The translations under genes were made by a program, and so were the position numbers. Under the pieces are notes generated by a model that saw only the letters and a list, made by a program, of their open reading frames with translations, was not told the origin of the DNA and made no database searches. A stretch of DNA of 31,658 nt, from positions 1-31,658 of the IMG/VR virus record IMGVR_UViG_3300033406_000031, one strand, 5' to 3'. Below are positions 585 through 21,171 of this stretch, one piece after another (within the stretch, counting starts at the first letter, position 1; the number at the start of each line of letters is the position of its first letter). Source of the DNA: a virus (lineage: Duplodnaviria > Caudoviricetes).

Positions 585-611
585 ACAGGATTTATTTCCC
601 ATTTGTCGAAA
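585..611 (+). promoter_or_regulatory. Sigma-H-like promoter of the 638 moron
   Basis: ACAGGATTT-N11-GTCGAAA vs consensus RNAGGAWWW-N11/12-RNNGAAT. Confidence 0.55.
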
Positions 612-637
612 TTTACCACATAAAGGAGCGTGGTTAT

Positions 638-10930: not shown

Positions 10931-11185
10931 TTAACAATATAATTCGATTTTTATCTGTTCAAACACATCGTTAAGGGTTACATTGCCATCAAGTTTATAA
11001 TCCTTAAACAGTTCTTCGGCTGATTGATATGTCTTTTCTGTATCCATTTTATCAAACTCAATAGCACTAATTCCTCCGTCATAATGCGTAATCGAATACA
11101 TCTTATCGTTATACATAAATTCGATTTCGTGTCCCTTATTAACATCTCTCACCATTTCATCTAACGATACAGTACTATTTAGCAC
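10931..11185 (-). CDS. Putative immunity protein for the MuF C-terminal toxin
   Basis: Small, acidic, AT-rich gene directly after MuF; GTG start with RBS GGAGGTG. Confidence 0.65.
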   Translation of the reverse strand: MLNSTVSLDEMVRDVNKGHEIEFMYNDKMYSITHYDGGISAIEFDKMDTEKTYQSAEELFKDYKLDGNVTLNDVFEQIKIELYC

Positions 11186-11186
11186 A

Positions 11187-12272
11187 TCAACCACCTCCAA
11201 ACATATCTTTATTTTGGCTATACTCATCATCAGTTAACGGTCTACCTTTATCCGGCTCCCCGTTTTTCCAATCATGTGCATGAGGCACTATCGGATGAGT
11301 CTTGGCATTACCATGGTTTGTGTTATGAATACTAAGGTTTACATGACCATTTTTATCATAATGCCACCTTTCTTTTATTATACCATTTTTGCCAGCCACA
11401 TCAATATGACTATTTGGTTTTCCTGTCCTCAAATTAGTATTTTTAGGTGCAAACCGGCCTTTTTTATCCCTGGGATGCTCGCTCTCACTAAATTTAGTTA
11501 CGGGATCGTTATCCAAAAGAACTGGTATCACATCGCACCTACAATGTGGATGAGCCGGAGGTACTATATTGCCAGAGGGAAACGCATCGTCAAGGCCAAT
11601 CACGCCTGCCTTTTTATTTATTGCACATTTTTCACACGCCCCGCTACCTACAATCCACTGCTTGCCGAGGTTAAGACCGGAGTTCTTATAGCCAATCATC
11701 CGTCCGTTACAGTCCGCAAAGGCGGTTTCTGTTCGGGCAATCATTTTGGCCCGGCTTTTACTAAAGGCCGTATTGTCTTCGAGTTCCTTCGTAAGCTTCT
11801 GCGGCGACCAGCCTTCTTCCATTGCATCCGTAACAGTACCACGTAGATACTCGCGGGTACTTTCTGTTATGGCCCATGAAGCGTTCGGGTTATCCACCAG
11901 TTTACCGTCAACCCACTTTTTGCCGACCATCTCAGCAGCCCGCTCATTCGCCCAGGCAACTGCATCCTCATTGACCAGGTTCGTAATATTTTGATCAGTT
12001 ACTTCCACCTGGGTCAAGGCTCTTGCCCCGCTATACTTTGCAATACGCACTAATATCGGCTGCACATCGTCAAACAAAATGGACCAGCCGTTAAAGTCCA
12101 GCTCGTCCAAAATTTGATCTATTAATTTACCCGCTTTCAGAGAAACAACTATGGTCCCGGCTAATTCCGGTGCCCGTTCTTTGAAAAACTCCTGCAGGAG
12201 TTCTTCAATTTCAGACTCAGAATCATTTAATACAGTTGTGTCTCGTGAAAGCGGGTCAAAGACTTTTTTTTT
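11187..12272 (-). CDS. Mu gpF/SPP1 gp7 head morphogenesis protein with His-rich C-terminal toxin-like extension
   Basis: RAKMIARTETA, CEKC, PPAHPHCRC; extension HNTNHGNAKTHPIVPHAHDW; frame open to ~12297 without a good RBS/start. Confidence 0.85.
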   Translation of the reverse strand, partial: KKKVFDPLSRDTTVLNDSESEIEELLQEFFKERAPELAGTIVVSLKAGKLIDQILDELDFNGWSILFDDVQPILVRIAKYSGARALTQVEVTDQNITNLVNEDAVAWANERAAEMVGKKWVDGKLVDNPNASWAITESTREYLRGTVTDAMEEGWSPQKLTKELEDNTAFSKSRAKMIARTETAFADCNGRMIGYKNSGLNLGKQWIVGSGACEKCAINKKAGVIGLDDAFPSGNIVPPAHPHCRCDVIPVLLDNDPVTKFSESEHPRDKKGRFAPKNTNLRTGKPNSHIDVAGKNGIIKERWHYDKNGHVNLSIHNTNHGNAKTHPIVPHAHDWKNGEPDKGRPLTDDEYSQNKDMFGGG

Positions 12273-16139: not shown

Positions 16140-16634
16140 TTATGCCCTTTTATACTCATAGGTTGCATCTTCGTGGAGTTGAGGCACTCGACGTATTACG
16201 CCTCTTGAAAGCAGCTGAAGCACCCGCTTAAGGGTTCTCGTCGCTGCCGGTATTACCGCCCGAGAGTAAAAGGCCCTTGGCTTTTCACCTTCACGAATTG
16301 CAAGTACTTCCTGTTCACAAATATCACCTGTATCTAGCCCCTCATCTGCCCAGAACCATGTCACTCCTGAATATTTTTCGCCTAAAGCAAAAGCCCACCT
16401 TATTGCATCAGGTCCTCTATGCCTCGGAAGCAGTGATGGATGAAATATTAAAGTTCCCAATTTCGGAAGCCGTATTTCCCGGCTACTCAGTTTTTGCGTA
16501 AGTAATGGGGCGATTGCCAAATCCGCTTTACAGGTTTCGTCTACAATTATAGCCCCAAATTCTTCAACCGTTTTCTTACACTCTTGAATAACCGGTAAAC
16601 TACGGTCGCCGTAAATATATATTTTTAGGCTCAT
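16140..16634 (-). CDS. Stand-alone formyltransferase (Formyl_trans_N)
   Basis: LIFHPSLLPRHRGPDAIRWA..GVTWFWADEGLDTGDI. Confidence 0.9.
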   Translation of the reverse strand: MSLKIYIYGDRSLPVIQECKKTVEEFGAIIVDETCKADLAIAPLLTQKLSSREIRLPKLGTLIFHPSLLPRHRGPDAIRWAFALGEKYSGVTWFWADEGLDTGDICEQEVLAIREGEKPRAFYSRAVIPAATRTLKRVLQLLSRGVIRRVPQLHEDATYEYKRA

Positions 16635-17758
16635 TATCTTTCCACCTCACCAATGTATTTAAATCCCTGTACGGCTCGAAAATGCCCTCCATAGCCGCAG
16701 GAAACATTACCTTTGGACGTTCGATTCATGCTTTGCCTTGATCTCGCTTTGTTGCCTCCAAACAGTATCGCGCTAACCTGCACCCATTTTTTCGATTTTC
16801 GAAGGGCTCCACAAAGCTGTGGATGGGAGGTATGAAAGTAAGTCGGATATTTATTGCCTTTCCTTCCGTAGCCCTCAAGGTGCAACTGACATACTGTTTC
16901 TAAAAACTTTAAACCACAGCCGGCACCTTGCCACTCCGGCATAGTGACCAATCTTGTTGCCCGGTATCCTCCAATTTCAAAGCGAGGACTTACAGCCAAG
17001 TGACAAACCAGCTCGCCGTCAGCAACGCCTACAAAGTATTCCGCTGCTATTGGCATCGGCAAGTCTAAATAATAATGCGGCTTAAAATATTTCCAGTAAC
17101 GCGAGTCTGTCTTGATAATCTCCAATTCGAATTTTGGTCGTCGAAGACGCCCCCTAGTAAAAGTTTTTTCTTTCGTATCGATAACCCAGTCAGGTTCAAC
17201 CCATTCCAATATGTCATAGTGAGGAGTAAGCAACACGCATTGATTCTTTCCGCCATTCTTTCGGCGCCAGGCTTTTTGAAATGCCTGAGATCCTATTTTT
17301 GCAATCTGCCTATCTATAACTGATGTAAATTCATCGATAACGACTTTTTCAGGTTTTTCACATATTAGCCGAGCCAATCCCGCCCTAAATTGTTCTCCGT
17401 TTGACAGAACATGAAAAGGACGTAACCAGGAAGGAACACTGCCAAGACCTACATTCGCCAACGCGCCAGTTACGCTGTCAAAGTCTCCTTCAGAAGCTAT
17501 TGCATCAATAATCGGCTTATCGCCTGGCCAATTTTTTGTATAATCATGAATCAGGTTTTCGCCGAAAATCACTTTTCCAATCGAGGTTTTACCACTTCCG
17601 CTTGGACCAACAACAACCCCAATTTGCCATTCAAAATCAAGTTCCGCGTCTATGTCTAGATCGAAATTGCAACCGCTCTCGGCATTAAAAAGGCTTTTTA
17701 CCCGCGCGGCCCGATAACTGTCAAAATCTGATACTCTATTTCTAACTTGAATAATCAC
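16634..17758 (-). CDS. ABC-type ATPase fused to GNAT acyltransferase
   Basis: Walker A GPSGSGKT, signature LSNGEQFR, Walker B VVIDE, His loop; GNAT motif A TRLVTMPEWQGAGCG; GTGA overlap with ParB gene. Confidence 0.88.
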   Translation of the reverse strand: MIIQVRNRVSDFDSYRAARVKSLFNAESGCNFDLDIDAELDFEWQIGVVVGPSGSGKTSIGKVIFGENLIHDYTKNWPGDKPIIDAIASEGDFDSVTGALANVGLGSVPSWLRPFHVLSNGEQFRAGLARLICEKPEKVVIDEFTSVIDRQIAKIGSQAFQKAWRRKNGGKNQCVLLTPHYDILEWVEPDWVIDTKEKTFTRGRLRRPKFELEIIKTDSRYWKYFKPHYYLDLPMPIAAEYFVGVADGELVCHLAVSPRFEIGGYRATRLVTMPEWQGAGCGLKFLETVCQLHLEGYGRKGNKYPTYFHTSHPQLCGALRKSKKWVQVSAILFGGNKARSRQSMNRTSKGNVSCGYGGHFRAVQGFKYIGEVER

Positions 17759-18348
17759 ACGCACACCACCTTGCATTCAAAGCCTTTCTCTTTAAGTTCG
17801 TTATATACTTTTTCCTGGTGTTGTTCATCTGTGCAAATTACTATTACTCCATACTGTTCATGGTAGGAAAACTGTGATCCCGTTTTATCTTCCTCAGGTA
17901 GTATTGGCTGTCCCAGAATCTTTGTTATTTCGGCACTATCAAATCCCGTTAGCTCCATATCAAATTCGCTAACGTCTAGTTCCTGTAATATCTCCTCTAA
18001 AGCAGTGGTATCCAAGACCGACAATTCCGCAATCTTGTTATCTGCAATCAGATCAGCCCATTCTGAGGCTTCATCTTCATAATCCTGCCGATCCACCGGC
18101 ACTTGATTAACACCAAGCCGCTGAGCCGCCATAAGCCGCCCATGACCACGAACGATAAAACCAGAGCGAGTGCTTACCGTAATCGGTGCGCGCCAGCCCT
18201 GGTTTTGAATTATCTTCGCTAATAGCTCTATTTGTTTATCGCTGTGTTGATTGGGGTTTCGTGGATTCGGTACCAGCTGTGTAATATCGGCCAGTTCATC
18301 AAATGCACAATAGACGGGAATTCCATCTGCAAGTATTTCCTTTGTCAT
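17755..18348 (-). CDS. ParB/Srx N-terminal domain protein
   Basis: PNPRNPNQH..GWRAPITV..IVRGHGRLMAA..IADNK; no methyltransferase domain attached. Confidence 0.9.
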   Translation of the reverse strand: MTKEILADGIPVYCAFDELADITQLVPNPRNPNQHSDKQIELLAKIIQNQGWRAPITVSTRSGFIVRGHGRLMAAQRLGVNQVPVDRQDYEDEASEWADLIADNKIAELSVLDTTALEEILQELDVSEFDMELTGFDSAEITKILGQPILPEEDKTGSQFSYHEQYGVIVICTDEQHQEKVYNELKEKGFECKVVCV

Positions 18349-19610: not shown

Positions 19611-19684
19611 ACGTTCTATCACCTCTATATGGTATAATATTCCTGTACAAACCACTATATAATGTACAGAGAGGAGAAATATTG

Positions 19685-19849
19685 ATGGCCAAGAACACTG
19701 GTGAAGGATTCAGACGTGGAGCCGTTGATAACCGCAGCCAAACTCATGCCCCAAATGGCAATGCAATTAAACGAGACACCACTACTGGGCGATTCATTGA
19801 CCAAAAAACAACTCCAGGCGACTTTAAAGGCGTTCGCCACGAAAAGTAA
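19685..19849 (+). CDS. Small basic moron protein (54 aa, missed by ORF track)
   Basis: MAKNTGEGFRRGAVDNRSQTHAPNGNAIKRDTTTGRFIDQKTTPGDFKGVRHEK; RBS GAGGAG; TATAAT upstream; terminator downstream. Confidence 0.8.
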   Translation: MAKNTGEGFRRGAVDNRSQTHAPNGNAIKRDTTTGRFIDQKTTPGDFKGVRHEK

Positions 19850-19954: not shown

Positions 19955-19983
19955 ATATAAAAGCGCCCATTTGGACGCTTCTT
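19955..19983 (-). terminator. Terminator of the DUF6338-peptide operon
   Basis: AAGCGTCC-AAAT-GGGCGCTTTTATAT right after the peptide 3 stop. Confidence 0.7.
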
Positions 19984-20124
19984 TCAGGTCTTCGTATTTT
20001 TGCCAGTTTTAGTCTCACCAGTACCGCCTCTGGGAGGTTTAATATTTCCACTTGACCCTTCAGGGCTATATCCGTCATGCGCTACTCCGCGTTTACCTTC
20101 TCCCTTACTTTTGGGTTTCATCAT
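19984..20124 (-). CDS. GYSP/PPxGG peptide 3 (46 aa)
   Basis: MMKPKSKGEGKRGVAHDGYSPEGSSGNIKPPRGGTGETKTGKNTKT; RBS AGGAGG. Confidence 0.8.
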   Translation of the reverse strand: MMKPKSKGEGKRGVAHDGYSPEGSSGNIKPPRGGTGETKTGKNTKT

Positions 20125-20260
20125 TTGAATTATTTCCTCCTGCTGATTCTCCAGTTCCACCTCTTGGTGGTTTTATCTTTCCAGAAGATGCTTCAGGACT
20201 ATAGCCACCGTGTATAATTCTTGGTTTGTCTTGTTTTTCTTTATTACTTTTTTGTTCCAT
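20105..20260 (-). CDS. GYSP/PPxGG peptide 2 (51 aa)
   Basis: MEQKSNKEKQDKPRIIHGGYSPEASSGKIKPPRGGTGESAGGNNSNDETQK; RBS GGGAG. Confidence 0.8.
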   Translation of the reverse strand: MEQKSNKEKQDKPRIIHGGYSPEASSGKIKPPRGGTGESAGGNNSNDETQK

Positions 20261-20393
20261 TACTTAAACTACTCCCGCCTGAAGACTCACCAGTTCCGCC
20301 TTTCGGTGGTTTTATAGTCGTTACCGATTGCGGGGAATATCCTTTTTTCTCTACAGGGCAATAGCCGTCAGTCAACACTTTCTGTTTGCTCAT
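20244..20393 (-). CDS. GYSP/PPxGG peptide 1 (49 aa)
   Basis: MSKQKVLTDGYCPVEKKGYSPQSVTTIKPPKGGTGESSGGSSLSNGTKK; RBS GAGGGGG. Confidence 0.8.
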   Translation of the reverse strand: MSKQKVLTDGYCPVEKKGYSPQSVTTIKPPKGGTGESSGGSSLSNGTKK

Positions 20394-20997
20394 GTTCGCC
20401 CCCCTCATAATTAGTATCAAAGAACTCTAAGTAATCAAAGTTTTCCTTACTTATCCACAAACCATATGTGCCTTCAACTTTATTCAGAAATGCTCCATTG
20501 TTATCCACTCGCCATACCTCTTCTAGATATAAATCCTCGGTATTAGGAAACGAAGAAGTATAAGATTTTTCGCTGAGATATAACCCACCAACCAATTTAC
20601 CATTTTTCAAGTGAATAAGAACAAAACAAGCCTTCCTTGACGAGAAAAAATGATCCCATGCTTTTGGTGTAGGAAGAATAACTTTATTTCTAAACCGCTC
20701 GCTTTCAATAACTTTTTTTATAATTATTGGCCATAAAATCGGAAGCACTAACAGTAAGACATAGATCAAAAATATAAAGGCGCCTGGATAATAGGGCTGT
20801 ATTTTCTTTATATACGCTAAAACCCACCATACAACTGCAAAATTGATACAGCCATAGCTCATAACTTCTAAGAAATAATCGACGGGCTTACGTATTTCTC
20901 CTGGAACTAATAGCTGCCATACTTTCCAAGATATAAAACCAGGAACAAAACAAAAAATAAATAAAGTCATCTTATCAATATTAAAAATATCTACCAT
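20368..20997 (-). CDS. DUF6338-like membrane protein
   Basis: FVPGFIS in TM1, 3 TM, P.AWDHFF...V.IHLKNGK.VGG.Y...S.TSSFP..EDLYLEEVW. Confidence 0.8.
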   Translation of the reverse strand: MVDIFNIDKMTLFIFCFVPGFISWKVWQLLVPGEIRKPVDYFLEVMSYGCINFAVVWWVLAYIKKIQPYYPGAFIFLIYVLLLVLPILWPIIIKKVIESERFRNKVILPTPKAWDHFFSSRKACFVLIHLKNGKLVGGLYLSEKSYTSSFPNTEDLYLEEVWRVDNNGAFLNKVEGTYGLWISKENFDYLEFFDTNYEGGEHEQTESVD

Positions 20998-21171
20998 GTC
21001 CCAGCCCTCAATACCAACTAAAGCGTTATTTCCTTATGCCTGTTTTCAACATAAGGAAATAAACTCCTGCAAAATTCATAAAAAATAGACCGCCCTTCAA
21101 GGCGTCCATGTTATGTAAACTCATTAAGTTGCAGACCAATTAATTTAAGTTTAGCATATTTGTCAAAAAAG

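Follow-up and report, generated by a model that had tools for sequence, protein, structure and literature searches.

What does a phage-borne gene for a membrane protein of the DUF6338 family do together with the three short, overlapping peptide genes that follow it, and why does the motif shared by these peptides recur on unrelated phage proteins? The window analyzed here, that is, the whole stretch of 31,658 nucleotides of a virus record, appears from its ORFs, assigned by eye, to be a temperate phage or prophage fragment whose right end carries an integrase and a repressor; recombination and replication genes are present, and to the left come the genes for terminase, portal, head, and tail. 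The DUF6338–peptide unit is situated between the early and late genes and is low in GC (0.34 in the DUF6338 gene), and a locus identical to that of the window was found in a genome labelled Bacillota (L001). Its features are as follows:

21091–21104, minus strand: terminator-like hairpin (z = −4.0), closing the upstream gene and isolating the unit
21043–21070, minus strand: promoter-like site, sigma-H-like by a consensus pattern fitted to this site
21026–21062, no strand assigned: perfect 13-bp inverted repeat with an 11-nt spacer, over the promoter-like site (z = −5.0)
20368–20997, minus strand: DUF6338 gene, 209 aa (PF19865, E = 1.3e-36)
20244–20393, minus strand: peptide 1, 49 aa, a pair of GYxP units ahead of IKPPKGGTGE; shares 26 nt with the DUF6338 gene
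20105–20260, minus strand: peptide 2, 51 aa, GYSP-x6-IKPPRGGTGE; overlaps the peptide 1 gene by 17 nt
19984–20124, minus strand: peptide 3, 46 aa, GYSP-x6-IKPPRGGTGE; overlaps the peptide 2 gene by 20 nt
19959–19982, minus strand: terminator-like hairpin (−14.4 kcal/mol, z = −3.7) with a T-rich run after it, directly past peptide 3

Layout of the unit and its three peptide genes

A preliminary description of this locus, made from the letters alone, had placed three ORFs of 46–51 aa behind a DUF6338-like gene, and all coordinates hold: each peptide gene overlaps the gene before it (by 26, 17, and 20 nt) and has a purine-rich ribosome-binding site, which for peptides 2 and 3 is formed by the Gly-Gly codons in the tail of the preceding peptide. 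Over the 14 codons of the core, the pairs of genes differ by 7, 6, and 9 synonymous and by 1, 1, and 0 nonsynonymous changes, as expected from the selection on the peptide that had been claimed; judged by their sequences, the three peptide ORFs are real and under protein-level selection. The absence of a Sec signal was likewise confirmed, the highest 15-residue hydropathy among 56 peptides being 0.9, with no transmembrane segment. None of the Pfam, PHROG, or PADLOC families matches the window peptides, and PADLOC-DB 2.0 returned 0 families for 6 proteins at E values up to 1.

The single terminator ascribed to the unit is the hairpin past peptide 3, found by folding and absent from the list of a consensus terminator scan. 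At the other end, the promoter-like site is one that we take to resemble the sigma-H consensus; the pattern, which was fitted to this site, occurs twice in the window, where 0.18 matches would be expected. The second match (585–612, plus strand) has CAGGA...TTTATTTCC in common with the DUF6338 site and lies 26 nt ahead of an accessory-looking gene of 206 aa, which encodes an N-terminal hydrophobic segment and runs in the opposite direction to the tail genes; from this resemblance, both accessory genes may depend on a common sigma factor or regulator. The inverted repeat is a candidate operator or 5′ hairpin, and no further exact copy of it occurs in the window.

Three other stretches of the window should be mentioned. 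A 54-aa ORF (19682–19849, plus strand) is convergent on the peptide unit and matches phrog_12550, of unknown function, with an E value of 6.5e-23. At 16140–18348 (minus strand), a ParB-like gene is followed by an ATPase/acetyltransferase-like and then a formyltransferase-like ORF, which by eye resembles a phage DNA-modification cluster. A head morphogenesis-like protein with a C-terminal extension is encoded at 11187–12110 (minus strand) and followed by a small acidic ORF (10931–11230, minus strand); by eye, the two resemble a MuF-type polymorphic toxin and its immunity gene.

DUF6338 and its peptide across homologues

To follow the unit beyond the window, we collected DUF6338 relatives from 28 loci in genomes and 75 in metagenomes, to which genome searches added 19 (122 loci in all). 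Of these, 110 were scored by the profile; the 12 without a profile match were left out, as were 3 loci of the window's own DNA and 7 truncated ones, and grouping the remaining 100 at 90% identity gave 71 clusters. A GYxP...PPxG[GR][ST]G peptide is found directly downstream of DUF6338 in 61 of the 71 clusters by regexes chosen after inspection of the first 28 loci (56 have PPxG[GR][ST][GAV] in the 250 nt downstream of the gene, and 61 when the pattern is loosened), and the co-occurrence that the preliminary description had called for thus exists, with controls of 0–2 (reverse strand 2/71; 1 kb further 0–1 of 50; upstream 0/54). The shared core that it had described is real, and a motif of this kind is family-wide, but the exact regex of that description matches 0 of the 71 clusters, because the spacer is mostly 9 residues. 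Three tandem peptide genes, true here, are an exception elsewhere: two peptide genes occur only in L020, that is, in 1 of 61 other loci, and three in none.

Of the 10 clusters missed by the regex, 5 show a divergent form of the peptide on inspection by eye. An NPPP-type peptide is present in two distant members, downstream in L110 and upstream in L109; L108, also a distant member, has no recognizable peptide. Neither of the two close homologues that have no peptide is an intact gene: L100 has no membrane half, and L042 runs into another ORF. All five split DUF6338 genes retain the peptide. An asymmetry of loss (6 broken DUF6338 genes with an intact peptide, none intact without one) was considered and set aside as too small once gene size is allowed for.

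The 62 homologue peptides measure 49–93 aa, usually with one copy per locus, and carry 0, 1, 2, or 3 GYxP-like units in 5, 32, 21, and 4 cases; 60 of them have an ATG start and a site resembling a ribosome-binding site. A terminator heuristic, which is probably too strict and therefore uninformative, scored 0 of 52. In 2 of 150 profile matches the peptide is fused in frame to the DUF6338 C-terminus, with the full motif in P0023 and GYxP units in P0141; both fusions could be assembly or stop-loss artefacts.

Searching with the DUF6338 profile gave 2987 clusters at 50% identity, and the family is rare, with 7 of 401 genomes over the cut-off. The units occur on mobile DNA, a prophage here and phage and plasmid records elsewhere. 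Defence-type neighbors (restriction–modification, SIR2, HipA, Fic, AAA_21, MrfA-type) were seen in 12 of 50 loci, a count that has no baseline and in which 3 are related contexts, and most neighborhoods in the 50 loci consist of housekeeping genes.

A gene pair of this kind is already in print. Meier-Credo et al. (2023; PMC10433244) described "operon 9" of Pseudomonas stutzeri ATCC 14405, in which the DUF6338 gene Pstu14405_RS12030 stands with SEP1, SEP5, and SEP2; the three small proteins were detected by mass spectrometry with 44–114 PSMs and 98–100% coverage, whereas the membrane protein was not detected, membranes not having been analyzed. In the sections of that paper drawn on here, the small proteins are held to be species-specific and not conserved, and no function, fold, binding, or phage-borne copies are given. 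The preliminary statement that no function had been described therefore stands, but the pair itself was not new. As in the window, a DUF6338 gene is followed by three unannotated, cytoplasmic, hydrophilic, and proline-rich peptides of <50 aa; unlike the window peptides with GYxP...PPxGG[ST]G, those of P. stutzeri, as presented there, belong to an NPP...RP...PPPPKK class without GYxP and PPxGG[ST]G. A Klebsiella phage and two plasmids have more distant members that retain GY[QT]P and lose GGSG, and these link the window class to the P. stutzeri peptides; GYQP together with a PPKKP end forms such a bridge in Klebsiella phage pJN2-26 and a Fluviibacter plasmid. The peptide class shifts with the DUF6338 clade.

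The protein itself matches PF19865 over residues 7–194 with 126.5 bits against a cut-off of 26.5. Its AlphaFold2 model (pLDDT 92.7) has three long N-terminal helices and a beta-domain at residues about 107–196. Every row listed by Foldseek for it is an Sm, LSm, or Gemin chain (best E 2.6e-3); in VIA-align, Sm/LSm/Hfq chains fill almost the whole top 50 (best Z 7.8, where values under 8 are middling, with rmsd 2.8 over 69 aligned residues), and a structure search of the Atlas also matched the beta-domain to Sm/LSm/Hfq. The DUF6338 profile found nothing better than E 0.3 among PDB sequences. As modeled, the C-terminal domain is an Sm/LSm/Hfq fold, a helix and a five-stranded bent barrel, including the strands that pair between subunits; it differs from those proteins in the three membrane helices in front, in barrel insertions, in an identity of 10–27%, and in being net acidic on average (9.3 Lys+Arg, 12.8 Asp+Glu). 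N52, D115, S145, Y157, and E191 are its invariant polar residues. The first loop has on average 3.2 Lys+Arg, the second loop 1.0, and the stretch past helix 3 has 3.5, indicating an N-out topology with a cytoplasmic Sm domain; the helices are thus predicted to span the membrane and to place the Sm domain on the same, cytoplasmic side as the signal-less peptides. MscS, a heptamer, likewise has three membrane helices and then a cytoplasmic Sm-like domain. DUF6338 has the same order of parts and predicted topology, which is a resemblance only, and is without the C-terminal cage domain of MscS; no MscS or other channel chain is among the listed fold matches, the rows being filled by the Sm domain.

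A complex of three DUF6338 and three peptide 1 chains was predicted with a score of 0.39 (0.41, 0.39, and 0.38), against at most 0.01 in three controls. In a calibration that this job is unlike, 116 of 157 solved complexes and 2 of 215 mismatched pairs passed the mark used, but only 18 of the 157, along with both mismatches, passed it with a score of 0.60 or under. The runs agree in at least 66% of contacts, with a partner pLDDT of at least 48. In the AlphaFold2 model of the natural fusion P0023 the domain is confident and the peptide tail has a pLDDT of 50–66. Searching the PDB by sequence gave no like complex and 0 matches to the peptide profile. The complex prediction weakly supports direct binding of the peptide to DUF6338. 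That the two form a dedicated pair, as first proposed, is well supported by their co-occurrence, the fusions, and the weak complex prediction.

Several single loci deserve mention. In L059 (891–4723) the DUF6338–peptide module lies within a type I restriction–modification operon, and in L015, L081, L088, and L090 it adjoins Eco57I/TaqI-type genes. L003 has a ClpP-like SDH-type protease gene (1952–2905) directly 5′ of DUF6338 on the same strand, seen in no other locus, and in one plasmid hit (H10) the DUF6338 match overlaps an annotated Mov34/MPN/PAD-1 (JAB) gene, a single case.

The motif on phage proteins and in cell genomes

To see where the motif occurs regardless of DUF6338, we searched viral contigs for the DNA form of YxP-x7–12-PPxGG[ST]G and obtained 97 loci. 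DUF6338 stands upstream of 0 of 99 matches, and a protein pattern found none in the viral contigs. The motif is in frame in 57 of 82 distinct viral matches, where chance would give about 15 for the 25 out of frame, and a Gly before the Tyr, which the search did not ask for, is present in 42 of the 57 in-frame and 3 of the 25 out-of-frame matches. Forty viral carriers have the whole motif; 38 were kept, L185 and L199 being dropped as likely chance matches in low-complexity sequence. When the 38 records were searched whole, DUF6338 was found in 0 and the peptide profile in 38, and since only 4 of the records are at least 90% complete, DUF6338 could lie on their missing parts.

With the motif masked, the carriers form 36 families of 47–496 aa. 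The motif is N-terminal in 8 of the 38, C-terminal in 16, and internal in 14, and in 5 carriers it directly follows a membrane helix and basic residues. Eight carriers match a PHROG (two terminase small subunits, an endonuclease, a ParB-like protein, a DNA methyltransferase, a glycosyltransferase, a nucleoside deoxyribosyltransferase, and UvsX), and in these the motif falls either in a linker or beyond the domain that matches. For the terminase small subunit, 424 homologues were found; of the best 120, 4 have the full motif, in a variable linker, and 18, counting those 4, have a P[PSL]RGG-type piece. The motif may thus in part arise or decay in Pro/Gly-rich linkers. No neighbor and no Sm-like gene within 1.5 kb is common to the 38 viral motifs. 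The peptide profile gave only single-member matches in the PHROGs, at E 0.03 or worse, and one unnamed cluster in the Atlas, at 0.75; a word-index search for longer proteins with the motif, a weak one, gave none.

Matches in cells are of a different kind: in 802 cell genomes of two phyla the peptide profile matched 15 times and hit no housekeeping protein, and of the 14 matches other than the identical one, 10 stand beside DUF6338 (including 3 that were already part of the profile), 1 at a contig edge, and 3 do not. The NPPP-RP-PPP class shows a similar pattern: of its 65 distinct viral matches, 11 are microproteins encoded next to distant DUF6338 genes, frequently more than one at a locus; others are N-terminal grafts or lie behind a membrane helix, and many of the rest look like polyproline noise. 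By eye, L131, L163, L168, and L216 have both motif classes (GYQP...PPxGGSG and an NP...P...RP type) in one carrier.

Possible roles of the pair

The reading that we tentatively favor, at a little under an even chance, is that the peptide is a labile antitoxin restraining a membrane effector and that phages carry mimics of it; it is proposed because in cells the motif goes with one membrane protein, and phages without that protein have gained it repeatedly. Starting from the genes, their selection and linkage, the fold, and the spread of the motif, we infer toxicity, an oligomer, a trigger, and mimicry as follows. A disordered cytoplasmic peptide, translationally coupled behind DUF6338, would bind the Sm domain through GYxP...PPxGG[ST]G; DUF6338 would assemble through its Sm domains into a membrane oligomer harmful to the cell, and the short-lived peptide, made in excess (the three genes here serving as a safety margin), would hold it off. 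An infecting phage that stops host expression would let the peptide decay, so that the effector aborts the infection. The prophage would carry the unit against competitors, and phages of module-bearing hosts would create antitoxin mimics by adding the motif to proteins of their own or to membrane anchors. Since DUF6338 is rare, 36 independent grafts would need local, strong selection. A two-gene coupled unit on mobile or defence-rich DNA is also a feature of type II toxin–antitoxin and abortive infection systems. In most type II pairs the antitoxin gene is not downstream of the toxin, whereas the putative antitoxin here is. Of the three mechanisms offered in the preliminary description, the best fit is an effector restrained by peptides, since the motif appears on unrelated proteins of phages that lack DUF6338; a RiPP precursor and an exported signal are disfavored.

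The main rival, unlikely in our estimate, takes the motif to be a docking tag for a widespread host factor (e.g., Hfq/LSm or a protease adaptor), with DUF6338 and its peptides a nontoxic, membrane-tethered competitor or partner in that pathway. It would explain how phages without DUF6338 profit from the tag despite the rarity of DUF6338 and why the carriers are functionally unrelated, and Sm folds are able to mix into hetero-rings, which also counts for it. However, no housekeeping protein is matched in the 802 cell genomes and 10 of 14 matches lie beside DUF6338; a tag for a universal factor should exceed 4 of the best 120 (of 424) terminase homologues; and the peptide class follows the DUF6338 clade, while the complex prediction lends its weak support to DUF6338 as the partner. 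The linkage, fusions, and binding evidence apply equally to a nontoxic signalling pair of membrane receptor and intracellular ligand, for example in superinfection control or lysis timing, in which the peptide is an activating or tuning ligand that phage motifs jam or trigger; the unit's own promoter-like site and terminator agree with this, as do copy number and internal repeats that vary like a dose. We regard such a pair as rather unlikely, given that DUF6338 has no output domain and no conserved third gene, that a ligand cotranslated with its receptor carries little information, and that a trigger would be counter-selected in phages and not gained 36 times.

The repeated GYxP units and the Gly-Gly pair resemble precursor architecture, DUF6338 has invariant polar residues, and DUF6338 is reported to occur in biosynthetic clusters (PMC10433244), all of which would suit a RiPP-like precursor or exported peptide with DUF6338 as its processing enzyme or exporter. 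This is improbable in view of the rest: among 107 of 150 listed neighbor ORFs at 50 loci there is no recurrent tailoring enzyme, peptidase, or transporter; the fold is Sm-like and that of no known peptidase; the motif is embedded in proteins such as terminase, recombinase, and methyltransferase; and the P. stutzeri peptides, by the coverage of 98–100% given in the same source (PMC10433244), are near full length in cells. Export of the Phr/AimP type is further opposed by 56 peptides with no N-terminal signal or hydrophobic segment. That the conserved element is instead an RNA or DNA hairpin, or a selfish in-frame mini-element with the peptides as by-products, was suggested by the self-complementary PPxGG codons, over which three small hairpins were called, and by the unrelated places of the motif in phage genes. 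We consider it very improbable and largely refuted by codon use, the lack of covariation, and in-frame enrichment: wobble positions pair in 19 of 52 cases against 19.6 when shuffled, all four codons are used at each Pro and Gly and AGT is included at the six-fold Ser, the viral matches are enriched in frame with the unrequested Gly, and 60 of 62 peptides have an ATG and a site like a ribosome-binding site.

Returning to the antitoxin reading, there are precedents for the mimicry. DarTG is reportedly countered by a phage-borne mimic of its antitoxin, and Dmd of T4 is said to be a phage counter to a toxin–antitoxin system. The nearest precedent is the pseudo-ToxI of phage phiTE against ToxIN (PMC3594212). 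Such systems share with this unit an effector gene that precedes or follows a repeated, dose-variable neutralizer, and look-alikes in phages without the system. They differ in that the neutralizing part would be played here by a short linear peptide motif and that of the effector by a membrane protein with an Sm fold, while the mimics would be grafts spread over many unrelated proteins. The wider proposal, that DUF6338 is an undescribed family of antiphage effectors, membrane-anchored Sm-fold oligomers silenced by a short linear motif that phages graft, as a portable antidefence tag, onto the termini and linkers of arbitrary proteins or onto membrane anchors, gained dozens of times and with a separate motif class per effector clade, is possible but in our judgment doubtful.

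The gene pair was thus known and unexplained; new here are the fold, the predicted binding, the two fusions, the family-wide motif, and the viral grafts. The DUF6338 fold, the family-wide motif, and its phage spread were not found in the literature searched, and defence-screen tables outside that literature could list DUF6338. Three small proteins that proteomics had taken for species-specific become a family over many phyla, with a predicted fold and a candidate interaction. Were the mimic reading true, it would add a new type of membrane effector and counter-defence by a transplantable tag of 20 residues, and antidefence function could be predicted from motifs carried in the tails of otherwise ordinary phage proteins. 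Should DUF6338 prove nontoxic, a linear motif common to microproteins and 36 unrelated phage proteins would still need explanation. One DUF6338 match over the cut-off is in Haloferax volcanii, a genetically tractable host.
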